A stretch of DNA of 28,687 nt from a virus (lineage: Duplodnaviria; Heunggongvirae; Uroviricota; Caudoviricetes), in IMG/VR virus record IMGVR_UViG_3300046820_000635; one strand, given 5' to 3'. Below the pieces are notes generated by a model. The model was given only the letters and a program-made list of their open reading frames with translations. It was not told where the DNA came from and searched no databases. Each line of letters opens with the position of its first letter. The first letter of the stretch is position 1. Both the position numbers and the translations under genes were made by a program. Shown piece after piece: positions 10,902-27,058 of this stretch.

Positions 10902-11520
10902 CAGTAAGTTTGACGCCAACGGCTATTGGGACAAACCTGTAGAAAAAATAGTTTATCTGCCTACAGCAGAAGACGTTGCTCTATTTGATCAAAATGGCTA
11001 CGATCTAACTGATTTAGAAAAGCATTATGCCTATAGCAACTGGAACAAGCCCAAGAAACATAGAGAACATCGTACAGCGCTTAAACAGTCTTGGTTCGTA
11101 CAAGACTACACTGTAGAAGGTGCTGTTCTTAATCACAGTCTACTATTTGAACGTAAAGGGTACACAGGTGCTGCACTAGAAGAACTGCAATACTGGGCAC
11201 GATCTTTACCTTTAATACATAAAGTTATTGCACTTCGCCCTAAATGGGGATTGGACTTTAGCATGGACTGGGCCGATACCAACGGCAATGCTTTTGAAGT
11301 CCTACATTGGGAGTGGGATAGTTTCAACTACGAAGAAATATGCGCAGTTAAAGAAACTATTGAACCTATCTTGTTAGCTATGGATTGGCAGGATGCAGGA
11401 CAGAATATCCTGGCTAAGAAAGATCAATGGTACCATCTAGACTTCTTTGGACAGAGCCGATGGAAATGTGAATACTTTGGTATTCCAGAAGAAAGATTTA
11501 AAATGGTTGCTTGGAAATAA
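10879..11520 (+). CDS. Conserved phage hypothetical protein (213 aa)
   Basis: ORF track; globular, aromatic-rich sequence (FDQNGYDLT, WGLDFSMDW). The exact start is uncertain. Confidence 0.8.
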   Translation: MSNVIITDSKFDANGYWDKPVEKIVYLPTAEDVALFDQNGYDLTDLEKHYAYSNWNKPKKHREHRTALKQSWFVQDYTVEGAVLNHSLLFERKGYTGAALEELQYWARSLPLIHKVIALRPKWGLDFSMDWADTNGNAFEVLHWEWDSFNYEEICAVKETIEPILLAMDWQDAGQNILAKKDQWYHLDFFGQSRWKCEYFGIPEERFKMVAWK

Positions 11521-11523
11521 ATA
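11518..11523 (+). promoter_or_regulatory. TAAATA box 5 nt before the SNase ATG
   Basis: TAAATA-cacat-ATG, with no SD. Confidence 0.7.
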
Positions 11524-11528
11524 CACAT

Positions 11529-11963
11529 ATGAAAAAACTATTACTATTATTACTGGCAATACCTGCAATGGCATTTGCACAGAAAACACCTCAGGGCGTT
11601 ACTTATGATGCACAGATTTTAAAAGTCAGTGACGGCGACACAGTTGTGATTGCAGCACCTTTTCTACCTGCTCCGCTCAAGCCACAACTTGCTGTTAGAA
11701 TCTTCGGAGTTGATACTCCGGAAAAAGGATTTAGAGCCAAATGTGAAAGTGAAAATCAAAGAGGTCTTGCAGCCAGCGAGTTCACTAAAAATGCAGTTAA
11801 AGCTAGTACACAACGACAGGTCATCTTATATGATTGGGATAAGTTCGGTGGCCGCGTGTTGGGAGATATCATTTTAAATGGTCAAAGTCTTAGAGCTATG
11901 TTGATAGCTAACGGATTTGCTCGTGAGTATTACGGAGAAGCAAAAGGTAGCTGGTGTAACTAA
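11529..11963 (+). CDS. Secreted thermonuclease (SNase/micrococcal nuclease family)
   Basis: Signal peptide MKKLLLLLLAIPAMAFA; DGDT, VRIFGVDTPE, DKFGGRVLG motifs. Confidence 0.88.
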   Translation: MKKLLLLLLAIPAMAFAQKTPQGVTYDAQILKVSDGDTVVIAAPFLPAPLKPQLAVRIFGVDTPEKGFRAKCESENQRGLAASEFTKNAVKASTQRQVILYDWDKFGGRVLGDIILNGQSLRAMLIANGFAREYYGEAKGSWCN

Positions 11964-11964
11964 A

Positions 11965-12843
11965 ATGAATATTGTAGTATCTCAAGTATTTGCGCAACTA
12001 TGCGAAGGGCTGATTTCCGAAGCCAGTTCTTCGTTGTCTTTGGTAAAAACTATTCCCGGTGGCAAAGAAGTTATAAAGTATTTGCATACTAACAGCGATC
12101 TATCACATGATCAAGAATATCGTCCAATAATGAAGATTCAATGGAGCGAGTTAAAAGATGAGCGTTATGGTTCTTGGGTCATTATACAAGGTGACAGAGG
12201 TATAGGTGCTATTAGATCAAAGAATGGTTCTTATACTGCAATCGCAAGTACGGGCGGAGATGTACAGACTTTTAGAAATGATCGAGGTGGAAACATTATA
12301 GATTTTCTTAAAGGACAGGTCGGCCAGCTTCGTAAGTTTTATGTTGGCCCCGACAAAAACAGTGCTGCATTACTTAAGAAAGCAAGAGCCAAACAGCAAC
12401 AATCTCCTACAGCTCCTATAATCGATCAAGATTCGCTAGTTAGAAAGTTTAAACCGTTATGGTTAAAAGCAGTTCGTGCGGCACAGGCCGATATTAAAGG
12501 TATGGTTGCTAACATGATTAAGAATGATGCGTTTGATAAAGCCAAGCGTAAACTTAACATGTTAGAAGAACTAGAAGGCATTGCCAGTTCAATCGAAAGT
12601 GGCGACAATATAGACAACTATGCTCCTATTGTTCGTGCCGTAGGTAATGCACTTACACTGGCAGCAGGATATCACTATCCAGAACAGACAGGTGAAATAT
12701 CAAGAGGACGTTATGGTGACAATCATCTTACTTCAACAAATGGAGAGGGTCGTCGCTTGCTAATAAAAGATATTTCAAATGGAGATCAAGCAAAACTCAG
12801 CAGTGTTTTAGCTTTCTTTAAGAGGAACTTGATCACAGGATGA
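11965..12843 (+). CDS. Hypothetical protein, possibly virion-internal (292 aa)
   Basis: Start re-called at ATG 11965, just after the SNase stop; ATGA overlap with the next gene. Confidence 0.75.
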   Translation: MNIVVSQVFAQLCEGLISEASSSLSLVKTIPGGKEVIKYLHTNSDLSHDQEYRPIMKIQWSELKDERYGSWVIIQGDRGIGAIRSKNGSYTAIASTGGDVQTFRNDRGGNIIDFLKGQVGQLRKFYVGPDKNSAALLKKARAKQQQSPTAPIIDQDSLVRKFKPLWLKAVRAAQADIKGMVANMIKNDAFDKAKRKLNMLEELEGIASSIESGDNIDNYAPIVRAVGNALTLAAGYHYPEQTGEISRGRYGDNHLTSTNGEGRRLLIKDISNGDQAKLSSVLAFFKRNLITG

Positions 12844-16917: not shown

Positions 16918-17142
16918 TTATTTTGTATAAGCAGGTACACATGCTTTGAATGTGTCAGTTGCTTGCTTAGTAAGTGCTTGAGCAATAGCTAGACTTGCTT
17001 CGACAGATGTCTTGGCAGCGGCTGCTTGAGCATCGATAAGTTTGTTTAGTTCTTCTTTGAACTTAGCGTCGGTAACAAATGTGTTAACGAGTTGCTTTTT
17101 TGCACCTTGAACGGTGTCGATGATTGTGTTGTGTGTAAACAT
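16918..17142 (-). CDS. Phasin-like amphipathic helical protein (74 aa)
   Basis: AAGGAG SD; Ala/Thr/Lys-rich all-helical sequence resembling PHA-granule phasins. Function inferred. Confidence 0.55.
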   Translation of the reverse strand: MFTHNTIIDTVQGAKKQLVNTFVTDAKFKEELNKLIDAQAAAAKTSVEASLAIAQALTKQATDTFKACVPAYTK

Positions 17143-17213
17143 ATTTTTCTCCTTGTGTGTATGTGTTACGATCTACTGCACCTTTGCAGCTGATGTATTA
17201 GTATATATCTTTA

Positions 17214-17786
17214 TTATTTAAATAGCAACGGATATGTGAGCATTCTGGCAAACCTTCTTTGAAGTTTTCCTAGATGATCTATCTTTGCCATGTTACTTTC
17301 AACAACTTCGTGTATGACACTAGACGCAGTAGCATCTGGAATCTTAATGTCCGCAAGTGTTTCACCACCTTCGTTGATCAGTATGCCGTGCTTGCTGGCC
17401 AGCTTCTTAATGGCTGTGTTAGAGGTCAAGCATACCATACAGCCGCCTTTGATGTTGCGGTTTTGACACCATTCAACACAGCGACTCATTAAGCTACTGC
17501 CCATGCCCTGCTTTCTATAAGGCGTTAGTACACTAAATGCCAGTTCAGTTTCTCCGCCCACTAGACTGATATGCCCGGCGGCAACAACTTCTAGTTCTTC
17601 GTTTTCGATTACAAAGATCTTGTGTTCTTTAGGATTGTTTTCAAATGTAGTACAGAGCTGCTCGATAACCTCGTCTTTGACATGAAAGCCAAAGCGAGTG
17701 TATCTGCTTTCTTCGTCTAAGGCCAACAGATGCTTGCGGTACCTTGGGTACTCGTGAGGCTGTAGGCGATATACTAAGTGAGACAT
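17214..17786 (-). CDS. GNAT-family N-acetyltransferase
   Basis: ELAFSVLTPYRKQGMGSSLM (acetyl-CoA motif A) and NTAIKKLASKHG. Confidence 0.88.
   Translation of the reverse strand: MSHLVYRLQPHEYPRYRKHLLALDEESRYTRFGFHVKDEVIEQLCTTFENNPKEHKIFVIENEELEVVAAGHISLVGGETELAFSVLTPYRKQGMGSSLMSRCVEWCQNRNIKGGCMVCLTSNTAIKKLASKHGILINEGGETLADIKIPDATASSVIHEVVESNMAKIDHLGKLQRRFARMLTYPLLFK
17215..17220 (-). promoter_or_regulatory. TAAATA box upstream of the phasin-like gene
   Basis: Overlaps the GNAT stop region. Confidence 0.55.
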
Positions 17787-17787
17787 T

Positions 17788-17910
17788 TTACTTGCCTGTC
17801 ATTATGTGTTTAGCTGATTCGTAGTCGCCCATGCGAGCCAATGCGCTGGCCGCTTTAGCTTTACCCATCGATACGAAGAACTCGTATAGTACGTTCATGA
17901 TTGTTTTCAT
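17788..17910 (-). CDS. Small protein, 40 aa (MKTIMNVLYEFFVSMGKAKAASALARMGDYESAKHIMTGK), absent from the ORF track
   Basis: ATGA overlap with the upstream ORF; its TAA ends 1 nt before the GNAT ATG, filling the gap exactly. Confidence 0.8.
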   Translation of the reverse strand: MKTIMNVLYEFFVSMGKAKAASALARMGDYESAKHIMTGK

Positions 17911-18089
17911 AGTGGCCATCCTTTAGTTGTTTGGTTGCGATCAAACTGGCGAGTCCAGTGATCGATTTCTGCTGCGGTAGTTGGGTTTTTGGAAACGATG
18001 TATCGCTCCAGCTCACTACCGTAGGTTGCAGGTTTTTCTACCTGTTTGAGTTGCCTAGTAATATAGGCTATCATCGAGTTTAGTAACAT
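17907..18089 (-). CDS. Small hypothetical protein, DUF3563-like (60 aa)
   Basis: AAGGA SD; ELERYIVSKNPTTAAEIDHWTRQFD. The family resemblance is from memory only. Confidence 0.7.
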   Translation of the reverse strand: MLLNSMIAYITRQLKQVEKPATYGSELERYIVSKNPTTAAEIDHWTRQFDRNQTTKGWPL

Positions 18090-18134
18090 TGTGTGTCCTT
18101 AATCTGTTAGTAGAGACTCATGGTTTCTACTGAG

Positions 18135-18140
18135 TATTTA
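18135..18140 (-). promoter_or_regulatory. TAAATA box for the small-protein/GNAT operon
   Basis: Intergenic and oriented toward ORF 18089. Confidence 0.65.
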
Positions 18141-18224
18141 TTCCAGTATATGCTGCAACCGCACAAAAGTAAAGCCATTGATTTCACCAAAAAAATACTG
18201 TAAAATAAAACGAATAGATTGGAT

Positions 18225-18230
18225 TAAATA
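18225..18230 (+). promoter_or_regulatory. TAAATA box heading the plus-strand virion block
   Basis: 21 nt upstream of ATG 18252. Confidence 0.65.
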
Positions 18231-18251
18231 CACTATCACGCTAGGATAAAA

Positions 18252-18545
18252 ATGAAACTTAAAACTAGATCCATTTTGCAAGAGCTGAATGAAATCGCAG
18301 AAGTGCGCAATACCGACTCGCTCGTAGAAAGCAGAGCAGTTAACATCATCAACTCTGCAATAAACCTCATCGAAAGCATTCACAAGCATTACGGTCCGGA
18401 GCAGGCAGATGAGCTCGAGCGCAGATTGATCAATGCTATCAAAGGATCAGATCCAGCGAAGTTTACTAGGGGTGTACGCAAAATCGCCGAGTCCCGCAAA
18501 GAAAAACGTAGATTAGACGAATCAAATGAAGACAAAACTACTTGA
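18252..18545 (+). CDS. Conserved phage hypothetical protein (97 aa)
   Basis: ORF track; helical; AGGA SD. Confidence 0.8.
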   Translation: MKLKTRSILQELNEIAEVRNTDSLVESRAVNIINSAINLIESIHKHYGPEQADELERRLINAIKGSDPAKFTRGVRKIAESRKEKRRLDESNEDKTT

Positions 18546-19296
18546 AGGCGGCGGCGTATTTAAAGACGATGCAGGCAGCATACTTACACTAAGCATCAGC
18601 AAGGCTGATGTTTTACCTACAGTCCAATGGTTGGAAACTGTTACAGGACTAGAACTAACAGACTACATGCTAGGTACTACAGGCAAGAAAGAAATGTCTG
18701 GTGATTTGGACCTAGCTATCGATTCCAATAAAGTAAGCAAGGATGAGTTTGTAACAAACCTATCTGCTTACATTACCAAGAAAGGTGGAAATCCTAAGGA
18801 TTGGATCCGCAAGAGTGGCATCAGCGTTCACTTTAAGACTCCCATCAAAGGAGACGAGGACAACGGCTATGTACAAGCAGACTTTATGTTTGGAGAGCCT
18901 AACTGGTTAAAATGGTCAATGACAGGCGGCAGAGAAGGCAGCGATCTAAAAGGTAGCCATAGACACATCATCCTAGCCAGCATTGCTAAAACTAAAGGAC
19001 TCAAGTGGAGTTTTCAAAACGGGTTAGTCAACAGAGAAACTAACGACGTTATTACAAAAGATCCAAACGAAATAGCCAAAAAACTATTAGGTCTTTCAGC
19101 TACTTCTAAGAACATTGAAGATCCCGAAGCAATCATTGATTATATTATTAAGCTGCCTAACTATGAAGAGCTAGTAGCTGATGCTAGAAGTACACTGTCC
19201 AAAGACGGAGTTGAACTGCCAACAGCAAACAAACTAGAGAGCTATACACCGGGAACAAATGCTTGGTTCCGTAAGATGATTGAAGTGGTGAAATGA
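18526..19296 (+). CDS. Pol-beta-superfamily nucleotidyltransferase-like protein
   Basis: LGTTGKKEMSGDLDLAID fits hG[S/T]x(9)DhD, with a third acidic residue in VQADFMF. Confidence 0.65.
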   Translation: MKTKLLEGGGVFKDDAGSILTLSISKADVLPTVQWLETVTGLELTDYMLGTTGKKEMSGDLDLAIDSNKVSKDEFVTNLSAYITKKGGNPKDWIRKSGISVHFKTPIKGDEDNGYVQADFMFGEPNWLKWSMTGGREGSDLKGSHRHIILASIAKTKGLKWSFQNGLVNRETNDVITKDPNEIAKKLLGLSATSKNIEDPEAIIDYIIKLPNYEELVADARSTLSKDGVELPTANKLESYTPGTNAWFRKMIEVVK

Positions 19297-20483
19297 GAGC
19301 ATTTGAAATCGTAACTGAGAAGTGGAGCAAAAAGTACAAAAGCTCAATCAACTGCTCAAACCCTAAAGGCTTTAGTCAGAAAGCTCATTGTGCTGGGCGT
19401 AAGAAAACCAACGAAGATGTAGCCGCTCCTAAGAAAGTAGGGCGTGAGTTCAATCATCTTGAAGACCTAGTGTTCACAGAGCAGAACGGTGCTGCTCGTG
19501 CTGTTAAACTGCTGATGAGTATGTCTCAAGACGCTAGGGACATTACGGTCAAGTGGGATGGGAGTCCTACGGTCTATTGGGGACGAGAGCCCAACGGACA
19601 GTTTCGAATGGTAGGGAAGAATAACTGGGGTCGTGAGGAAGGAGCTAGCAATAGTCCTAAAGAATTAGAAGACTTTATCAACAGCAGAGGCAAGGGCGAA
19701 GAGTGGCGCCCTAAGTTTGCCAGTGATATGGCTGCTATGTGGCCTATCTTTGAAGCAGCAACTCCTGAAAAGTTTAGAGGATATGTCTACGGAGATATCT
19801 TGTTTCATCCTGGTAAGCCTTACGAGGGTGCTGATGGACGCATTACTTTTACTCCTAATCAAACTACCTACAGTGTTAGGGGTGTAAGCGATTACGGTAG
19901 ATTAATTGCCGGCAAGAAAGTTGCTGTAGTTGCACACAAGAAACTAGAATACTTTGGCGACAAAGAAGGCGAACCGATAGAAGATGTTACTGAGTTCCGC
20001 GGCGCTGATCTTGTAGTATTTGGACAGACCTATGTCGATCACCGACCGGCTGTGGATGCTGACAATCTAACAAGAATACAGCAGATCATAAACAAAAATG
20101 CTTCAAATATCAATCAGTTTTTAGATCCTGTAGCAGGTATGGGATATCTTAGAGACACGCTTTATACTTTTGTTAACACAAAGAGCAAGGCCAAGCAGTT
20201 AGATGATATCAACACAGAATCTTTCTTCAGTTGGCTAGCTGCAACTCCTGCAAAGTTAAAGAAAATATCAGAACACAACTCTAAGTTTAGCAATATATTA
20301 GACATTGTATTTGAACTGGTAACTGAACTTATGAAAGCCAAAAACGAAGTTATTGCTGAACTAGATCAAGCACAGGGTGATATTGTTGCACATACAGCAG
20401 GGCAACCCGGCGGCGAAGGGTATGTTTATCAAGATGTTAAACTAGTTCCAAGGCATCGTTGGACTCCATTTCGAGCCGATTAA
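19293..20483 (+). CDS. RNA-ligase-like (covalent nucleotidyltransferase) protein
   Basis: Motif I VKWDGSP, motif III YGDIL, motif IV GEGYV, motif V VKLV; no OB-fold C-terminus. Confidence 0.55.
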   Translation: MRAFEIVTEKWSKKYKSSINCSNPKGFSQKAHCAGRKKTNEDVAAPKKVGREFNHLEDLVFTEQNGAARAVKLLMSMSQDARDITVKWDGSPTVYWGREPNGQFRMVGKNNWGREEGASNSPKELEDFINSRGKGEEWRPKFASDMAAMWPIFEAATPEKFRGYVYGDILFHPGKPYEGADGRITFTPNQTTYSVRGVSDYGRLIAGKKVAVVAHKKLEYFGDKEGEPIEDVTEFRGADLVVFGQTYVDHRPAVDADNLTRIQQIINKNASNINQFLDPVAGMGYLRDTLYTFVNTKSKAKQLDDINTESFFSWLAATPAKLKKISEHNSKFSNILDIVFELVTELMKAKNEVIAELDQAQGDIVAHTAGQPGGEGYVYQDVKLVPRHRWTPFRAD

Positions 20484-20513
20484 GACCGTAAATCGCCGAT
20501 TTTTTATCTCCAA

Positions 20514-20521
20514 TATAAATA
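20514..20521 (+). promoter_or_regulatory. TATAAATA (exact T4 late promoter consensus)
   Basis: Followed by a GTCCC/GGGAC leader hairpin and an AAGGAG SD. Confidence 0.8.
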
Positions 20522-20566
20522 CTATGCCGGTCCCGGAGCGGGACTATTGATTAAGGAGAAAATATC

Positions 20567-20989
20567 ATGGCTACATTTACAAGAGTAAACCCAAATCCAA
20601 CTACTACAGTTGACGTATTGTACGATACACTACAACTTCGTGCATTTAGAATCGAAGCACCGGGCGTAGACTTAGAGTCTGGCACAATCGGTGGCAAAAT
20701 GGAGCGTCTAGCTCAAGAGTTCGGTACAACTGGCGCAATCGTTGAGTTCGACGCTGACACAATGCTTATCATTGGTGATGCACACGCACTTAACAGCAAC
20801 ATTGTTGCTCGCCGTGCTGACAAAGTACTAGGTGGTACAGGCGCATTGGTAAACTACATGGCTGAAAACGGTAACCTAGGAACTGTTGGTTCTGGTTCTG
20901 CTGTTGCAGGTACTGTTGCTGCTCCAGTTACAACTGCTATTGTTGAAGTTGGATCTGTAACAACTCTATTCGGTCTATCATCAACCTAA
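20567..20989 (+). CDS. Probable abundant virion structural protein (140 aa)
   Basis: Stand-alone unit with its own late box, strong SD and terminator; Ala/Gly/Thr/Val-rich. Confidence 0.75.
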   Translation: MATFTRVNPNPTTTVDVLYDTLQLRAFRIEAPGVDLESGTIGGKMERLAQEFGTTGAIVEFDADTMLIIGDAHALNSNIVARRADKVLGGTGALVNYMAENGNLGTVGSGSAVAGTVAAPVTTAIVEVGSVTTLFGLSST

Positions 20990-21018
20990 TAGTTAGATTT
21001 CCTCGGGATGGGAAGACT

Positions 21019-21042
21019 AAGCCTACTCCGGTAGGCTTTTTT
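21019..21042 (+). terminator. Intrinsic terminator
   Basis: AAGCCTAC-TCCG-GTAGGCTT followed by TTTT. Confidence 0.88.
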
Positions 21043-21079
21043 ACGGCTGTACCTTATAATATGTAAATATTATCAGGAT

Positions 21080-21484
21080 ATGCAACAGTTCAAAATAATC
21101 ACGCTAGTAGATATCACTAGAACAAACTGCTCAAGAGCAGAAACAGATAAAATAAAAGTTGGTCAACAGGCAAACTTTAACACTCTTCTACAGGCTATTG
21201 GTATACGTAGTAACGTAGAATGGCACGCCGATCCGGAGATGCACACTGGCCGATTACCTAACGGCGACGGCAAGGCTAATCATTGGGTATGGGATTTTTT
21301 TGTTGAGCGTGACTTTGTCTTTACCAAAGATAACAATCCAGTAGGACTACTACTAGAAGACCTCGACGGAGTTCCTATTGTGGCAGATCTCTTAAACAAT
21401 GTGGACATATCTCCGGCAGCATTTCGCACTATAGGCGATCAACAAAACATATGGATAACCATAATATCTAAGCATAATTCTTGA
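21080..21484 (+). CDS. Hypothetical protein (134 aa)
   Basis: TAAATA at 21064-21069 and AGGA SD. Confidence 0.8.
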   Translation: MQQFKIITLVDITRTNCSRAETDKIKVGQQANFNTLLQAIGIRSNVEWHADPEMHTGRLPNGDGKANHWVWDFFVERDFVFTKDNNPVGLLLEDLDGVPIVADLLNNVDISPAAFRTIGDQQNIWITIISKHNS

Positions 21485-21506
21485 CCGATACACATTAAAT
21501 AAGTGT

Positions 21507-21830
21507 ATGAAAGGATTTACAGATTTTAGAGAAAAGACATTAAGACAAATAAGACTGTGGGCCTGGGCCGCGGCGGTACTTCCGATATCAGCACTAGCCG
21601 GCATTTTCTTTGTATGGAGATTTGGAACTGACAACTGGGTTTCAATATCTATGATTATCGGAGAAACGACCATGTTTGCTGTAGCAGTAGTATGGTGGTG
21701 GTGGGCAATGTATACGATGAAAAGATTAGTCAAACAATGGGATGTTACCAAAGAAAGTGTTGTCGAAGTCCTCACTGATTTAAAAGAAATAAAAAATATG
21801 GTTCAGGAAACAACTTCAAGAGATAAATAA
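21507..21830 (+). CDS. Membrane protein, 2 TM plus coiled coil (107 aa)
   Basis: TAAATA (21496-21501)-agtgt-ATG; two hydrophobic helices. Confidence 0.8.
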   Translation: MKGFTDFREKTLRQIRLWAWAAAVLPISALAGIFFVWRFGTDNWVSISMIIGETTMFAVAVVWWWWAMYTMKRLVKQWDVTKESVVEVLTDLKEIKNMVQETTSRDK

Positions 21831-21889
21831 CTCTAGTAAAGGCACTTTAAGGCATAGTATTTGTTTTTATACCCCATTGGAGATTTATT

Positions 21890-22132
21890 ATGTCGACACA
21901 GCCGACCACAAGTTTAGAAAAGCAGAGTTTAGAAGCGCACGTTGATTTATGTGCTCTACGTTATCAGCAGCTAGATACACGCCTTTCTTCGTTAGAAGAT
22001 AAGGTAGCCACTGTACACACTGATATTGTAGAAGGCCAAAAAAGTCTAACCAAAGTTATCATTGGCACAGCAGGAACCGTTATTGCAGGAGTTCTAGCCA
22101 TTGTAGTTACAATCTTAATGAAGATGGGTTGA
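21890..22132 (+). CDS. Coiled-coil protein with a C-terminal TM anchor (XhlA/holin-like architecture), 80 aa
   Basis: TAAATA at 21824-21829, GGAG SD; heptad segment then a hydrophobic tail. Function inferred. Confidence 0.7.
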   Translation: MSTQPTTSLEKQSLEAHVDLCALRYQQLDTRLSSLEDKVATVHTDIVEGQKSLTKVIIGTAGTVIAGVLAIVVTILMKMG

Positions 22133-22150
22133 TTAACTACCCAGTTAAAT

Positions 22151-22173
22151 AAAGGACCTTAGGGTCCTTTTTT
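22151..22173 (+). terminator. Intrinsic terminator overlapped by a TAAATA box (22146-22151)
   Basis: AAAGGACC-TTAG-GGTCCTTT-TTT; the next ATG is at 22175. Confidence 0.8.
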
Positions 22174-22174
22174 A

Positions 22175-22600
22175 ATGACTAGAATTTATCAAACACTGGA
22201 CAGTCTAGTATCCAATGAACTGTCTAAGAATATCATTCCGGTAAAAACTCCGGACGGTATTCTAGTGGGCGATGTTATAATAATCAGCGAAGGAACTATT
22301 AAACATCTTAAACAACGCAATGTCCTAGTCTATAAAGAAATCAGCTTAAATGCAGTGGCCATTTCACTGGCAAATCAGCTGGCATTACACAGAAGAACTG
22401 TGGAAATGGACAAATTATGGGCTGCTGATCAAGAGTACGGCCGCTGGTATATAGACAGCCAGATGCTACGATCGCAGTATCAGCGATCTGTAAATAACAA
22501 AGACTTCGATCGTGCAGATATGTTATGGTCCAGATACTGCGAAAGCCGAGATCGTGCAATGATAGCCAAAACCCATACAGAACGTTTAGTAAGATTCTGA
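22175..22600 (+). CDS. Hypothetical protein (141 aa)
   Basis: ORF track; fits the packing of the block. Confidence 0.8.
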   Translation: MTRIYQTLDSLVSNELSKNIIPVKTPDGILVGDVIIISEGTIKHLKQRNVLVYKEISLNAVAISLANQLALHRRTVEMDKLWAADQEYGRWYIDSQMLRSQYQRSVNNKDFDRADMLWSRYCESRDRAMIAKTHTERLVRF

Positions 22601-22630
22601 ATAAATATTACATCAATCTGGACTCCCAAT

Positions 22631-23620
22631 ATGAAAACAAGTGACCTATTCAAAACTAGCGCAAAACAGCTTAATGAAACTATCGAAAAAACCTTTGGTC
22701 GTAAATTAAATTTAGAAACATTTAACGTTGAGCAGTTAGAAGACGCTAGAAACAAACTACGCACACAAATCCATACAGCTCGTACAGAAAGTAGTTTTAA
22801 CGAAACTATCGAGAATGACACTTTAACACAAGCACAATGGATGCACGATGCTATTGTTGCGGAACTAATGGATCGCAATGAAAATATTGTTGACAATACA
22901 GAAGTTGAAGAAGAGATTGATCAAACAGACGACGAGTTATCAAACGAAAGCGCCCCACCAACAGCCAAAGGTGAGCGCATGGTCAAGCATATTAAGAAAG
23001 GATATGCAGGTGACGGCAAGTTAACAGATAAAGAAAAATCGATTGCTTATGCAACAGCATGGAAGCAACACAACAAAGAAAAAAACGAATCTATCGAAAC
23101 AGGAGAAGATATGACTAGATTACAAGAAGGTGAAATCCAGCAAGCGTCTGCGATTGTCACAGCAAAGACAATGGTTGACAGAGTTGGCCGTTGGATTGAA
23201 GAACTTTCTGGTATGGAGAACGACACTCTATTACAGTTAGGCGATTCTATCCGTGACGAAATGAGTCAACAACAAGCTAAGAGTTTTATTAGCACAGTAG
23301 CTCCAGCTATTCAGCAAGCTCTACAAAACCTAAAAGACACACGCGAAACATTGGCAACTGGAGTTCGTCAACTAACAGGCGAAGAGCAAGGTGCCGAAAT
23401 GCTAGGTGCAGAGCCAGGCATGGGCGGCGAGCCGGATCTAACTGCTGAGCCAGATATGACTGCTGAGCCAGATACAATGAACGCAGGCGAAGGTGATCTA
23501 GCCCCCATTGATGACTTTGCAGCAGCAGAGCCAGCAGTAGGCGGAGCCGAAGCAGCTGGTCGCGAACAACGTGAAAGCATTGATCGCAGCAATCGTTTAT
23601 TAAAAGTTCTAGCAGGATGA
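22631..23620 (+). CDS. Acidic coiled-coil protein, possible prohead core/scaffold-like (329 aa)
   Basis: TAAATA at 22602-22607; Glu-rich with several (L/I/F)xE sites and a low-complexity tail. Confidence 0.7.
   Translation: MKTSDLFKTSAKQLNETIEKTFGRKLNLETFNVEQLEDARNKLRTQIHTARTESSFNETIENDTLTQAQWMHDAIVAELMDRNENIVDNTEVEEEIDQTDDELSNESAPPTAKGERMVKHIKKGYAGDGKLTDKEKSIAYATAWKQHNKEKNESIETGEDMTRLQEGEIQQASAIVTAKTMVDRVGRWIEELSGMENDTLLQLGDSIRDEMSQQQAKSFISTVAPAIQQALQNLKDTRETLATGVRQLTGEEQGAEMLGAEPGMGGEPDLTAEPDMTAEPDTMNAGEGDLAPIDDFAAAEPAVGGAEAAGREQRESIDRSNRLLKVLAG
23429..23479 (+). repeat. Imperfect 18-nt tandem repeat x3 (EPDLTA/EPDMTA/EPDTM)
   Basis: gagccggatctaactgct, gagccagatatgactgct, gagccagatacaatg. 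Confidence 0.85.
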
Positions 23621-23892
23621 AATTTTTCGATATTACCAACGAAAGTGATTTTCTAAAAATCAGAGAGTTGGCTCCTGCTATGGCTCCCGCTGGTCCGGGA
23701 GTTGCTCCAACAGCCCCTGGTGCAGCACCTGCACCCGGAGTACAACCCGTCGTTGATCCGGCAGCACAGGCTAAGATGGCAGCAGCACAGGCCAAGGATC
23801 TAATGGATAGAAAGAAACAGGTACAAGATCAGATCAAACAAACTGAACAACAGTTGCAAGATCTAAGAAAACAACTGGCAGAACTAGGATGA
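23617..23892 (+). CDS. Pro/Ala-rich protein with a C-terminal coiled coil (91 aa)
   Basis: ATGA overlaps at both ends. Confidence 0.8.
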   Translation: MKFFDITNESDFLKIRELAPAMAPAGPGVAPTAPGAAPAPGVQPVVDPAAQAKMAAAQAKDLMDRKKQVQDQIKQTEQQLQDLRKQLAELG

Positions 23893-24272
23893 GAATATTT
23901 GAGTTTGCAGATAGAGGCGTTGAGAAATATATTATTGTTCTCAGAAACCTTATTGGCCGTGCTTCTAGTAGAAAAGCTCCAGCTAAATTAAACTGGGGCG
24001 GTCTTAATAGACTTGTTGGATCTACCGGTAATGAAGTTACAGCTGACTATGAAACATTCAAAGCCATGTACGACTCAACACCTGCATTACAAACTCTTGT
24101 AAAAGATTTTAATCAAAACGGTATTGAACTCAACGTGCCCGGAGCTCCGGAAGAAGCTCCAAAAGCTAGCGGTACAGCACAACCTCAAGACAGTCAAGCA
24201 GCAGTTGATCAAACAGCAGCATCGGCAGCAGCCGGACAGTTAGCACAAAGCCAAACTACTCCCCAGGTTTGA
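23889..24272 (+). CDS. Hypothetical protein (127 aa)
   Basis: ATGA overlap with the upstream gene; Ala/Gln-rich tail. Confidence 0.8.
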   Translation: MRIFEFADRGVEKYIIVLRNLIGRASSRKAPAKLNWGGLNRLVGSTGNEVTADYETFKAMYDSTPALQTLVKDFNQNGIELNVPGAPEEAPKASGTAQPQDSQAAVDQTAASAAAGQLAQSQTTPQV

Positions 24273-24297
24273 CTATTAGTTTGTTATCCTGTAATAT
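24269..24297 (+). promoter_or_regulatory. sigma70 promoter TTGACT-17-TAATAT for the exonuclease
   Basis: -35 at 24269-24274, -10 at 24292-24297; ATG 7 nt downstream. Confidence 0.75.
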
Positions 24298-24304
24298 ATA
24301 CAGG

Positions 24305-25009
24305 ATGACAACAACTATTTTAACTCCTCCACCATTTATAGAAAAGTTTCAGTACAAAGGCTGTAAACAAATCAACGATCCTGTAACACGCAAACGTGTA
24401 TATCAAACTCCAGACGGAGAATGTTTACCTAGCGTTACAACTATCCTTTCAGCAACAAAGGATATGACGCATCTAAATGAATGGAAGAAGCGAGTAGGCG
24501 AACAAAAAGCACAACAAATCACAACGGAAGCCGCAGGCATAGGTACCGCAATGCACGGCAATCTAGAGCGGTTTTGTGCAGGATTAGAGCGCCTTCCAGG
24601 ACAACATCCTGTTCAGGTACAAGCACATAAGATGGCTGATGTTATTATCGATAACGGACTCAGCAAGGTAAATGAAATCTGGGCAATGGAACAGAGTCTT
24701 TACTTTCCCGGTTTGTTCTCGGGTACAACTGACTTGGTTGGTGTACACGAAGGCGAACCGGCTGTAATGGATTATAAGCAGACAAACAAGCCAAAAAAAT
24801 CAGAGTGGGTGGAAGATTACTACCTACAGCTTATGGCCTATATATTAGCACATAATGAAGTCTACGGTACAGACATTCGTAAAGGTGTTATTTTTATGTG
24901 CAGTAGAGATTTTCAATACCAACAGTTTACACTAGAGCCAAAAGACTTTAATAAATGGCAGGATGCATGGCTCAACAAAGTAGAGGAATACTACAGTCAA
25001 GCTAGATAA
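24305..25009 (+). CDS. PD-(D/E)xK exonuclease (RecB/Cas4-like phage family), 234 aa
   Basis: LPSVTTIL, GTAMHGNLE, GTTDLV, DYKQT, YYLQLMAY. Start re-called at ATG 24305. Confidence 0.88.
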   Translation: MTTTILTPPPFIEKFQYKGCKQINDPVTRKRVYQTPDGECLPSVTTILSATKDMTHLNEWKKRVGEQKAQQITTEAAGIGTAMHGNLERFCAGLERLPGQHPVQVQAHKMADVIIDNGLSKVNEIWAMEQSLYFPGLFSGTTDLVGVHEGEPAVMDYKQTNKPKKSEWVEDYYLQLMAYILAHNEVYGTDIRKGVIFMCSRDFQYQQFTLEPKDFNKWQDAWLNKVEEYYSQAR

Positions 25010-25032
25010 ATATCCTATAACAGGAAAAATAT

Positions 25033-26637
25033 ATGGCTGTCGTACAGATAAGTAAAATCCAGATCCGTAGAGGTCTAAAAAACTCGGGAATAGGTGTCCC
25101 TCAGCTAAGTTCTGCTGAAATGGCATGGGCTATTGATAGTCAAGAACTATACATCGGAAATGGCAGTATTGCAGAAGGCGCTCCCTATGTTGGTAACACA
25201 AAGATACTGACAGAAAACGATAATCTGTTGAGCCTAGCATCTAGTTATACTTTTGGTTATACTGATCCTTCTATCAACTTAGCCTTACCTCGTAGTATTC
25301 AAAGCAAACTAGACGAGATACAGGTCAGTGTTGCTGATTACGGTGCAATAGGCGACGGTTCTACAGACTGTGTAGAAGCATTTACAAACGCAGTGACCGA
25401 GTTATTTAGAAACACAAATCCTGATTATAAAAAAGTTTTACTGGTACCCAACGGTGAATACTTGTTCTTGTCCGACCTAAAGATTCCTAGCGGAACTATC
25501 GTTAGAGGCGAGACTAAGTTAAACACTGTATTGCTAATCAATGACAATAACATTCTATTTGTCACAAGCGAAGGACTAGAAGTTGCAGACTTTAACAGTA
25601 GCAATCGTCCTACTAATATCGAGATTTCAAACTTAACTGTACAACGACAAGCTGGCGAAACAGTGTTCACTGGAGTTTCTGATTCTAAAATAGAGAATGT
25701 GAGATTTGTTGGAGAGTATTCGTTGGGTAACACTATCGGATCCTTAGTATCTCAGGCCAGTGCAGTATTTTGGGAAAACAGTCTAGCAGGAACTAGAACA
25801 ACAGGACTGAAGTTTATCAACTGTGAGTTTGACAGCAATGCTGTAGCAGTTAGATGCGACAACTACGTTGTAGATTCAACTAGCCCTCCTGTGTTTAGAA
25901 CAGACATACTGTTTGATTCCTGCACCTTTGCAGCCGTTGACACGGCGGTATTCGTTACTACAGATGCTCTATTAATCAGTCAAGGCAATGATTGGAAGTT
26001 TAACGACTGTCTATTTGAAGAAGTTGCAAATCGTGCAATCTATACAACTGGCCCAGGAAGAGGCACTCTAGTAAATCGTTGTACGTTTAAAAACTGCGGT
26101 AACGGTATTGGGTCTGCTGGTAACCCAACAGTTGAAATCATAGCCTTTGGAGACCAGTTAGGTAACGTAGTAACTGACTGCTCGTTCAACAGACATCAAA
26201 ATGCTTCTGTAGTTTCTCTTAATACTATCAAAGCAATATCCGAAGTAGTTAATGCAGCCAATGTTTCTATTGTTGATAAGAACTCTTCAGATATCTATCT
26301 ATCGGACAGCTTAAGAACTTTAGCAGTATTTTCTGCTCATAATAAGTTTACCACGATTGACTATACATTGAGATTGAGTTCTCATGTTAGACACGGACAG
26401 ATTAACATAACCATCGACGATGACTATTCGTCAGCATCCCTATCTGATAACTATCAGTATTCGGCATCAACTATTACAGCACCAGGAGGAGCACTAATGA
26501 CTAACTTTGAATTTGCAGTGGAACTCAGAGATAACGACGCAGACAGCGGCGTTGAAACACTAGTGCTTTATTATAAGAACCCACTAGCGACAGGAGCCAC
26601 TGGAACTATTTCCTATAGTGTGGCTTACGGTGTTTGA
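25033..26637 (+). CDS. Tail fibre/tailspike-like protein with a pectate-lyase-3-type beta-helix (534 aa)
   Basis: N-terminal QISKIQIRRG...AEMAWAIDSQELYIGNG module; VSVADYGAIGDGSTD...LLVPNGEY beta-helix start; TAAATA at 25007-25012. Confidence 0.75.
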   Translation: MAVVQISKIQIRRGLKNSGIGVPQLSSAEMAWAIDSQELYIGNGSIAEGAPYVGNTKILTENDNLLSLASSYTFGYTDPSINLALPRSIQSKLDEIQVSVADYGAIGDGSTDCVEAFTNAVTELFRNTNPDYKKVLLVPNGEYLFLSDLKIPSGTIVRGETKLNTVLLINDNNILFVTSEGLEVADFNSSNRPTNIEISNLTVQRQAGETVFTGVSDSKIENVRFVGEYSLGNTIGSLVSQASAVFWENSLAGTRTTGLKFINCEFDSNAVAVRCDNYVVDSTSPPVFRTDILFDSCTFAAVDTAVFVTTDALLISQGNDWKFNDCLFEEVANRAIYTTGPGRGTLVNRCTFKNCGNGIGSAGNPTVEIIAFGDQLGNVVTDCSFNRHQNASVVSLNTIKAISEVVNAANVSIVDKNSSDIYLSDSLRTLAVFSAHNKFTTIDYTLRLSSHVRHGQINITIDDDYSSASLSDNYQYSASTITAPGGALMTNFEFAVELRDNDADSGVETLVLYYKNPLATGATGTISYSVAYGV

Positions 26638-27055
26638 TCTATACGGACACAATAGACTAACAACTTGGAAAGAATTTAGGGACAGCTTAGAAGTAAGTGA
26701 CACTCCGTTAGAAGATGTTGTTTTACTTTGGAGCCGCGCCCCATTTGTTAGTCCATATCTCAACCCGGAAAACGCTTCCGAATGGCCCGATCCATGGCAT
26801 TTAGTACTTGATAATAAGTACGACGACCTTGCTATTGCTCTCGGAATGTTATACACTATTAAATTAACACAGCGGTTTATGACCAGCGTTTGTGAGATAC
26901 ATACGTCTATGCTTTCTGATGAAAAGCAACCTAGATATTTTCTAGTTGTTGATCATAAGCATGTTTTAAACTTTGAATATAAAACGGTACTTGACATTAA
27001 AGACTTGGATAATATCCAAGCCAGGCTGATATGGTCAAAAACTGATGCGTTATAA
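26630..27055 (+). CDS. Hypothetical protein (about 141 aa)
   Basis: ORF track gives 26618; GTG 26630, overlapping the upstream stop, is a plausible start. Confidence 0.75.
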   Translation: MFDLYGHNRLTTWKEFRDSLEVSDTPLEDVVLLWSRAPFVSPYLNPENASEWPDPWHLVLDNKYDDLAIALGMLYTIKLTQRFMTSVCEIHTSMLSDEKQPRYFLVVDHKHVLNFEYKTVLDIKDLDNIQARLIWSKTDAL

Positions 27056-27058
27056 ATA
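27051..27058 (+). promoter_or_regulatory. TATAAATA box upstream of nrdA
   Basis: Exact T4 late consensus 33 nt before the ATG; GAGG SD at 27083-27086. Confidence 0.7.

Follow-up and report, generated by a model that had tools for sequence, protein, structure and literature searches.

A linked Pol X-like and ligase-like gene pair of uncultured jumbo phages: a candidate extend-then-seal kit, probably carried in the capsid

Introduction

Filling and then sealing a break is shared in eukaryotes between Pol beta, lambda or mu and DNA ligase III or IV (Lig III/IV), and trypanosomes offer an RNA-side parallel in a terminal uridylyltransferase (TUTase) and REL1. Analogues of this fill-and-seal concept are also known among viruses. 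In its virions, African swine fever virus (ASFV) packages Pol X, a ligase and an apurinic/apyrimidinic (AP) endonuclease (PMC12172490), and in PgVPolX of Phaeocystis globosa virus 16T a Pol X core is fused to an NAD+-dependent ligase domain, with gap filling and then sealing demonstrated (PMC5537341). According to a review that summarises a concept of Burroughs and Aravind, the Pol-beta nucleotidyltransferase RlaP (PF10127) is paired with RNA ligases in jumbo phages and bacteria, and is predicted to restore lost nucleotides before cleaved tRNA is ligated (PMC7824862). Here we describe two overlapping genes, P0001 and P0002, from a 28,687-nucleotide stretch of viral DNA (Caudoviricetes; IMG/VR record IMGVR_UViG_3300046820_000635; hereafter the window), whose predicted products resemble a Pol X-type polymerase and a ligase-type enzyme. 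Because this combination is the known fill-and-seal layout, we read the pair as an extend-then-seal kit.

We refer to the family of P0001 as P1 and to that of P0002, which is the Pfam family DUF6267, as P2. Both have many members, essentially all from viruses (in the nearest ESM Atlas clusters, viruses account for 84-100% of the entries with a known taxon), DUF6267 being a Pfam domain of unknown function and P1 being without any family assignment; a full-text literature search for DUF6267 returned no paper, and neither family was found described. An earlier interpretation made from the letters of the window (the sequence-only reading) had proposed two coupled genes for different nucleotidyl-transfer chemistries in a block of virion genes. 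Both open reading frames (ORFs) and their ATGA overlap exist as it described (Table 1).

Results and discussion

A minimal Pol X-like fold

The catalytic site of P0001 is intact and of Pol-beta type. In an alignment of 50 homologues (30-80% identity), D60, D62 and D119 are the only invariant columns and G50, G53, S58 and G59 are at least 90% conserved; the conserved LG[ST]TGxKxxSGDxD loop identifies the active site as that of a Pol-beta-type enzyme. The G[T]...DxD...D motif of the sequence-only reading lies at G50-T51-x8-D60-L-D62 plus D119, and the motifs named there contain the best-conserved residues in both families. An AlphaFold2 model built from the homologue alignment has a predicted local distance difference test score (pLDDT) of 92.3. 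A Foldseek search with it matched 201 PDB chains at E <= 1e-3; the best match had an E of 3e-5 and a probability of 1.0 over about 200 columns, and the top chains were all Pol lambda, mu, beta, terminal deoxynucleotidyl transferase (TdT) or bacterial PolX.

The palm of the model superposes on those of Pol beta, lambda, mu and TdT. VIA alignments carry the match further, laying residues 12-201 onto Pol beta 142-335 and onto the entire ASFV Pol X (155-176 residues aligned), and they show that a thumb subdomain, the part that binds the nascent base pair, follows straight after the palm. Other enzymes of the Pol-beta superfamily align over only 73-104 residues (one row reaches 146 residues, at a root-mean-square deviation (rmsd) of 9.3). 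Readings of P0001 as a minimal nucleotidyltransferase (MNT) or as a CD-NTase or cGAS-like enzyme, both families that the sequence-only reading had suggested for structural comparison, were set aside because the thumb is present; matches to CD-NTases and OAS are mostly to the palm only. By its predicted structure P0001 is a minimal Pol X-like enzyme consisting of a palm, a thumb and extra terminal segments, with a layout nearest to that of ASFV Pol X. The two differ in that P0001 has the additional N- and C-terminal segments and no detectable sequence similarity to the ASFV enzyme.

Sequence profiles see little of this relationship. P0001 matches no Pfam (E <= 1), PHROG or NCBIfam model and is not recognised by the PF14792 and PF14791 profiles. 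Among its relatives, DNA_pol_B_palm is the only recurring Pfam match (three of the 50, below threshold, best 0.0018), one long relative matches the same model at 1e-5, and DNA_pol_B_thumb gives a single sub-threshold match. The family is nonetheless sizeable: clustering at 90% leaves 963 relatives, and clustering at 50% identity gives 637 clusters. It would constitute a new branch of minimal Pol X-like enzymes in bacterial viruses.

An OB-less, ligase-like protein of the DUF6267 family

P0002 belongs to DUF6267 (E 5.5e-20), with relatives in more than 4,000 clusters at 90% identity. Residues that do not vary across 42 homologues (21-69% identity) include K87, D89 and G90 of the KWDG segment, the E57-D58 pair in an HxED motif, and K350. 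Further segments are conserved in a fixed order: YxxG167-D-L-L, F186-x-P-N-x3-Y193, G-E375-G-Y-V and K383-L-V-x-R. From this order and the fold we infer that the segments correspond to ligase motifs I, III, IIIa, IV and V. The KWDG, GD, EGYV and K elements noted in the sequence-only reading (K87-W-D-G, G167-D168, E375-G-Y-V and K383) are all among them, and with conserved sites intact in both proteins its proposal of two different nucleotidyl-transfer chemistries stands.

The AlphaFold2 model of P0002 is of moderate quality (pLDDT 75) and displays the nucleotidyltransferase-domain fold common to ATP- and NAD+-dependent ligases and capping enzymes. The best Foldseek matches were ligases, none reaching E <= 0.001, and a coherent list of ligases came only from an exhaustive VIA structure search, in which RNA ligases were the five best matches at modest Z. 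These alignments span model residues ~50-390 with only 133-181 residues aligned, and the helical stretch ~259-355 separately matches unrelated helical proteins. As the sequence-only reading had stated, there is no oligonucleotide/oligosaccharide-binding (OB) domain: about 10 residues follow motif V, and none appears in the model. In this P0002 differs from DNA ligases and capping enzymes, and by type it is grouped with RNA ligases. From the model we assign it a ligase/capping-type fold split by a helical insert, which gives DUF6267 a concrete hypothesis, that of a new type of ligase with a helical insert instead of an OB domain.

Known ligases differ from P0002 in several respects. It has no significant sequence match to T4 Rnl2, Naegleria NgrRnl (Rnl5) or Trypanosoma brucei REL1, from which it is distinguished by the insert of ~100 residues between motifs IIIa and IV; only 8 residues separate motifs IV and V, and neither an Rnl2-type C-terminal nor an NgrRnl-type N-terminal domain is present. 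PF09414 (Rnl2-like) does not recognise it, P0002 and its 42 relatives match DUF6267 only, and by Pfam it is a member of neither Rnl1 nor Rnl2, in which it differs from the RlaP partner. The ASFV DNA ligase (NP419L) has an OB domain, whereas P0002 has none and is not recognisably a DNA ligase. Comparison of the DUF6267 profile with the DNA ligase of the window by hhalign was discarded (probability <1%, no sensible alignment).

Linkage and fusion of the two families

To describe the association between the families we used 80 loci from IMG/VR that encode a P1 homologue (45-79% identity), in which DUF6267 was sought by profile searches. A same-strand DUF6267 accompanies P1 in 72 of them, as a separate downstream gene in 67 and within a single stop-free ORF in five (four P1-P2, one P2-P1); the other eight have P1 only. 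Both domains occur in one chain in 51 of the 150 best representatives at 50% identity, mostly as P1-P2 with at least four P2-P1. Overall the two families accompany each other, often as fusions, across hundreds of phages. The coupling is thus stronger than the sequence-only reading had claimed, with adjacency as the rule and fusions in both orders. That reading had named unlinked and inactive genes in relatives, or folds lacking the active sites, as grounds against it; we find the genes linked, and the active sites lie within the predicted folds.

The tie extends to very distant cultured jumbo phages. A KxDG protein adjoins the P1 homologue, or lies two genes away, in Atu_ph07, Phosso and PA5oct, in the opposite order. 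The proteins of Atu_ph07 and Phosso both read EKLDGS and have sub-threshold PF09414 RNA_ligase matches (E 0.002 over nearly the whole model, and E 0.085, respectively), while that of PA5oct (EST35_0228) reads KIDG and in addition gives a match to DUF6267 in the C-terminal third of that profile. When the DUF6267 profile was compared by hhalign with the neighbour genes of Atu_ph07 and Phosso, the alignments were rejected (probability <1%); the aligned parts were motif I or motifs IV-V. EST35_0226 and EST35_0227 of PA5oct, suggested by their sizes as a second P1/P2 pair, show no similarity.

Two described systems share this architecture. PgVPolX, like the 51 fused P1 representatives, combines a Pol X-type polymerase and a ligase in one polypeptide; it differs in that its Pol-beta-like core is complete and has lyase activity and its ligase is of the LigA type. 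The phage families are unrelated to it in sequence, and the genes are split in the window. RlaP pairs resemble P1-P2 in that a Pol-beta-fold nucleotidyltransferase is genomically tied to a ligase, with jumbo phages as a main home. That likeness is a functional analogy for the association and not one of family membership: the RlaP profile matched neither P0001, nor its 50 relatives (E <= 0.1), nor five related contigs, while controls were detected. A complex prediction for P0001 and the P0002 core gave no support for binding, which counts neither for nor against an association.

P1 and P1+P2 also occur in proteins of 800-1300 residues (P0247, P0273, P0279, P0283, P0315 and others). The partners in 39 long fusions are led by DUF6267 (28) and CTP_transf_like, a HIGH-type adenylyltransferase (12), followed by DUF5661, NT5C, Amidoligase_2, ART-PolyVal and Tad3. 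Typing of the HIGH-type partner with NCBIfam gave only sub-threshold NMNAT/PPAT-like matches; that it supplies NAD+ to the ligase is speculation. One P1 domain has a weak match to crAss_CARGO2.

DUF6267 is not confined to the pair. The Synechococcus cyanophage S-CRM01 encodes a leaderless, full-length protein of the family, g132 (L085:3016-4209; 397 aa; 134 bits, all motifs; annotated 'hypothetical cyanophage protein, T4-like'), beside gp41 and MazG and without a P1 partner, which shows that the family is wider than the pair and not always tied to virion genes.

Genes between and around the pair

Some relatives have further enzymes in this neighbourhood. In a 367-kb relative (L087) the three consecutive genes after P1, for a 131-aa protein, a 338-aa protein and DUF6267, all begin MRAFEF. 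The 338-aa protein (11157-12173) is a second, divergent Pol X-like paralogue ('EGGWDTT...YVQIDFMW'), as indicated by an hhalign match on the VQxDFM strand (E 1e-4) and by membership in the same Atlas clusters as P0001. Such a paralogue (338-373 aa) also lies between P1 and P2 at L005:5148-6269, corresponds to the middle domain (residues 386-714) of the triple fusion P0250, and is absent from the window. Elsewhere the P1-P2 slot holds an enzyme of the class II CCA-adding/poly(A) polymerase family (L022:4917-6059; PF01743 2e-36, PF12627 1e-12) with the MRAFEF leader; this enzyme may repair tRNA 3' ends and be part of the capsid cargo. Gene spacing points to the same CCA-adding insertion in L023 and L025.

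Other occupants of the slot are a 307-aa protein with a peptidoglycan-binding domain (L059:4085-5008; PF01471, 8.6e-07) and the leader MKLFELI, and a 205-aa protein (L055:4719-5336) with the leader MKANEIIRE and a GxGxxS-like motif, which is kinase-like by eye and has no Pfam match.

The leader of P0002 and virion association

The T4 protease gp21 follows a hydrophobic-x-Glu cleavage rule. The T4 capsid-targeting sequence is an N-terminal peptide of roughly 10 residues that the internal proteins IPII and IPIII have in conserved form and that is removed by gp21 (PMC9958956). P0002 starts with a peptide of similar design, which is short, N-terminal, found on unrelated proteins and ends in hydrophobic-x-Glu. 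The sequences themselves differ, being MRAFE[FI]xxE in the P0002 family and MKTYQEFIAE in T4, and only the former can be followed by an extra, movable basic cassette. The motif is kept in about 119 of 120 close P0002 homologues, and this leader also begins unrelated genes in L087, L005 and L022, as well as ORF 23889 of the window; its bearers besides P2 are g131, the second Pol X-like paralogue, the CCA-adding enzyme and a 127-aa family. The looser form M-R-x-[FWY]-E-[FIL], at the head of ORFs of 60 aa or more, was found 42 times in 609 kb, every time on the coding strand. By analogy with T4, loading of P0002 into the capsid via this leader is plausible. For RlaP, the review text that was searched describes neither a leader nor virion association (PMC7824862).

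The 127-aa member in the window (23889-24272) starts MRIFEFADRG and has no Pfam match; its small conserved family (L011 8494, L087 16510) has an ...LRNL[IV]GRASSxKAPAKLNW motif.

Behind the leader of P0002 stands the basic cassette, 29 residues with the consensus KWSxKYKxSINCSNPKGFSQKAHCAGRKK, and the enzyme core begins at about residue 46. Nine of the 120 close homologues lack the cassette, and one more (P0124) has a different Cys-rich module in its place. In L005 the cassette is found on the Pol X-like paralogue and not on the P2 protein of that contig, which makes it part of the address and not of the enzyme. Hypothetical proteins of many cyanomyophages contain short stretches with 62-82% identity to the cassette, which might bind DNA or metal. 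One cassette-like stretch forms the C-terminus of SSM2_108 of S-SM2, between gp16 and gp17.

Packaging-type N-termini had been claimed for both proteins. The claim is half confirmed: it holds for P0002, and P0001 has only a short hydrophobic-x-Glu ahead of a conserved GGN. Fusions with the domain in an internal position have the same arrangement, and some homologues, the virion-proven PA5oct protein among them, lack it, so we do not count it as evidence. Before fused domains it could be a polyprotein cleavage site, or the Glu could belong equally to the fold; both were considered.

Virion association of the P1 family is documented by PA5oct, whose P1 homologue EST35_0231 (31% identity) is annotated 'structural protein, ESI-MS/MS' in a phage for which 93 proteins have been linked to virion particles (PMC7318152). 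A protease of the required kind is encoded by one related 115-kb contig (Peptidase_S77, the T4 gp21 family, 92 bits). The virion-block location that the sequence-only reading gave to the pair is reasonable, with PHROG 'virion structural protein' matches on both flanks (ORFs 18252 and 22631) and a TAAATA box before nearly every plus-strand gene. For the pair as a whole, capsid delivery is the most plausible arrangement.

Proposed function and alternatives

In the proposed scheme the 97-aa gene, P0001 and P0002 would form one late-expressed unit encoding a two-step kit for broken polynucleotides. P0001, using D60, D62 and D119, would supply the nucleotide(s) lost at a 3'-OH end or in a gap. P0002 would then charge K87 with AMP from ATP, or possibly NAD+, pass the AMP to a 5'-phosphate and seal the break, its helical insert taking the place of the OB or other accessory domain of known ligases. 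Both proteins would probably be loaded into the prohead, P0002 being addressed by MRAFEIVTE and trimmed by a protease of the T4 gp21 type, and on entering the cell with the DNA they could act before phage gene expression. End repair and sealing is the most plausible of the roles put forward in the sequence-only reading, and its RNA version matches the published RlaP-plus-RNA-ligase concept (PMC7824862). The full proposal of an extend-then-seal, probably capsid-borne kit has, in our judgement, an even chance of being right.

Whether such a kit would serve RNA or DNA is close to evenly balanced. RNA or ribo-terminated nicks are favoured by the OB-less ligase, by RNA ligases as its five best structures, by the sub-threshold PF09414 matches in the distant phages, and by the separate canonical DNA ligase in the window; the idea of RNA repair also gains some support because a CCA-adding enzyme with the same leader lies between the genes in some relatives. 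DNA is favoured by the Pol X fold with its palm and thumb, by the precedents among viruses and by a place in the capsid alongside the genome. The RNA-ligase-like half fits, for example, tRNA cut by host nucleases, and the polymerase half fits nicks or gaps in the incoming genome.

Several observations weigh against a dedicated repair pair. P0001 has neither helix-hairpin-helix (HhH) fingers nor an 8-kDa dRP-lyase domain (about 25 residues precede the palm helix, with no match covering them), and it is by these parts that cellular Pol X enzymes hold DNA; ASFV Pol X (O174L) likewise lacks both. Neither family found a meaningful match among PDB sequences by phmmer and profile searches. No kinase, phosphatase or AP endonuclease for end-healing was found in the three-gene unit, whereas the ASFV system, which serves a virus of a different kind of host from the bacterium infected here, includes an AP endonuclease. 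The virion-proven P1 homologue of PA5oct starts MSGNAF, without the leader. Finally, P1 domains also occur in long chains of polyvalent type with ART-PolyVal, NT5C, the HIGH-type adenylyltransferase and Tad3, a Thoeris inhibitor, so that the fusion signal may partly reflect shared delivery and not a shared pathway.

These chains (which also include Amidoligase_2), and a P1-P2 slot that accepts unrelated leader-bearing genes such as those for the PG_binding_1 protein and the 205-aa protein, suit an account in which both proteins are injected as independent effectors, each nucleotidylating host targets on its own, whether proteins, small molecules or nucleic-acid ends, and are linked only by cargo clustering and fusion, as happens in polyvalent proteins. 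P1 and P2 are paired with much greater regularity than any other combination, however, as the 28 to 12 lead of DUF6267 in long fusions illustrates; the pair is adjacent in nine-tenths of the loci sampled (72 of 80), the reversed order recurs in distant cultured phages, and both folds are typical of enzymes that work on polynucleotide ends. Independent effectors are therefore unlikely in our view, though they are the foremost of the alternatives. Scarcely behind them, and also improbable, is a late intracellular role such as nick or gap processing in replicated DNA before or during packaging, with presence in the virion incidental. The stand-alone, leaderless DUF6267 among the replication genes of T4-like cyanophages (S-CRM01 g132) and the P1 homologues without any leader speak for it, but the window already has an ATP-dependent DNA ligase of canonical type, the homologue from PA5oct was seen in purified virions, and P2 in this lineage acquired a conserved leader common to other genes of the block.

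The sequence-only reading had also raised protein NMPylation, for which we found no support, and nucleotide second messengers, which P0001 as a CD-NTase/OAS-like synthase and P0002 as its nucleotide-handling partner would make or destroy. The latter is very unlikely: CD-NTase/OAS matches cover essentially the palm only (84-104 residues, apart from the 146-residue row at rmsd 9.3) and rank below every Pol X match, while the Pol X matches extend over the thumb, and we know of no ligase-type enzyme in CD-NTase/OAS messenger pathways. Least probable of all is that the proteins are structural virion components with enzyme-like folds that have lost catalysis. The PA5oct homologue is indeed annotated simply as a structural protein, but the invariant columns across hundreds of divergent homologues are the catalytic D60, D62, D119, K87, D89 and G90, which would not be expected of decayed enzymes.

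A broader version of the extend-then-seal proposal, which we offer tentatively and consider rather doubtful, is that many uncultured T4-related jumbo phages load a repair kit by an MRAFEF...E address, with or without the basic cassette, sometimes including a CCA-adding enzyme or the second Pol X-like paralogue, and inject it, so that damage done by host nucleases to tRNA or to the incoming genome is reversed ahead of any phage gene expression. If packaging and injection are true, phages would have in this pair a counterpart of the repair enzymes that ASFV carries in its virions, and injected counter-defence would gain a new class, pre-emptive and enzyme-based, such as has yet to be demonstrated for phages; injected cargo could then be recognised in sequences by its MRAFEF leader. 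For enzymology, an OB-less, insert-bearing ligase and a 25-kDa polymerase would be of interest in their own right.

The locus and its promoters

Table 1. Position and basis of the features discussed, numbered from the first nucleotide of the window.
Feature	Position	Strand	Description or basis
P0001 gene	18526-19296	+	256 aa; mini family-X-polymerase-like nucleotidyltransferase (predicted); palm, thumb and C-terminal helices
P0002 gene	19293-20483	+	396 aa; DUF6267, OB-less ligase-type (lysine) nucleotidyltransferase (predicted)
ATGA start/stop overlap of P0001 and P0002	19293-19296	+	Direct sequence reading
97-aa gene, first of the conserved three-gene unit	18252-18545	+	phrog_11854 'virion structural protein', E 9e-19
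P0001 G50-T-T-G-K-K-E-M-S-G-D60-L-D62, triphosphate-binding loop and two catalytic Asp	18673-18711	+	Homologue alignment
P0001 D119, third catalytic carboxylate, VQxDFMF strand	18880-18882	+	Invariant in homologue alignment
P0002 leader MRAFEIVTE, residues 1-9, candidate capsid-targeting/protease-site peptide	19293-19319	+	Homologue conservation
P0002 optional basic cassette KWSKKYKSSINCSNPKGFSQKAHCAGRKK, residues 10-38	19320-19406	+	Variable among homologues
P0002 motif I, K87-W-D-G, predicted nucleotidyl-lysine site	19551-19562	+	K, D, G invariant in 42 homologues
P0002 helical insert of ~100 residues, motifs IIIa to IV, residues ~259-360, containing K350	20067-20372	+	AlphaFold2 secondary structure, pLDDT about 90 there
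P0002 motif IV (GGEGYV) and motif V (VKLVPR)	20409-20453	+	E375, G376, V378 at least 90% conserved
ATP-dependent DNA ligase, canonical, 446 aa	1359-2699	-	phrog_114, E 1.5e-89
TAAATA box, candidate T4-type late promoter core	18225-18230	+	22-27 nt upstream of the 97-aa gene

The window is phage DNA, with an ATP-dependent DNA ligase, a methyltransferase, a ribonucleotide reductase and several matches to PHROG 'virion structural protein' families, and the canonical ligase means that the DUF6267 protein is not the sole ligase-type enzyme of this phage. A nucleotide search of positions 17000-22000 against 50,697 phage records found no relative. Close protein relatives sit on metagenomic contigs of up to 367 kb, which points to an uncultured jumbo phage as the source. 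The 97-aa ORF shares 20 nt with the start of P0001; a gene of its family lies directly upstream of the P1 homologue in 70 of the 80 viral loci, and PA5oct (EST35_0225) and Phosso have homologues.

TAAATA is not enriched above chance in the window as a whole, only its placement being suggestive, and the plus strand of the three genes (18252-20483) contains no copy. On the plus strand from 18225 to 27058, nine of the ten copies lie 11-66 nt upstream of a gene start, at nine successive starts, a pattern that suggests, from sequence, T4-style late promoters. The full T4 late-promoter octamer TATAAATA occurs twice, at 20514-20521, preceding the gene after P0002, and at 27051.

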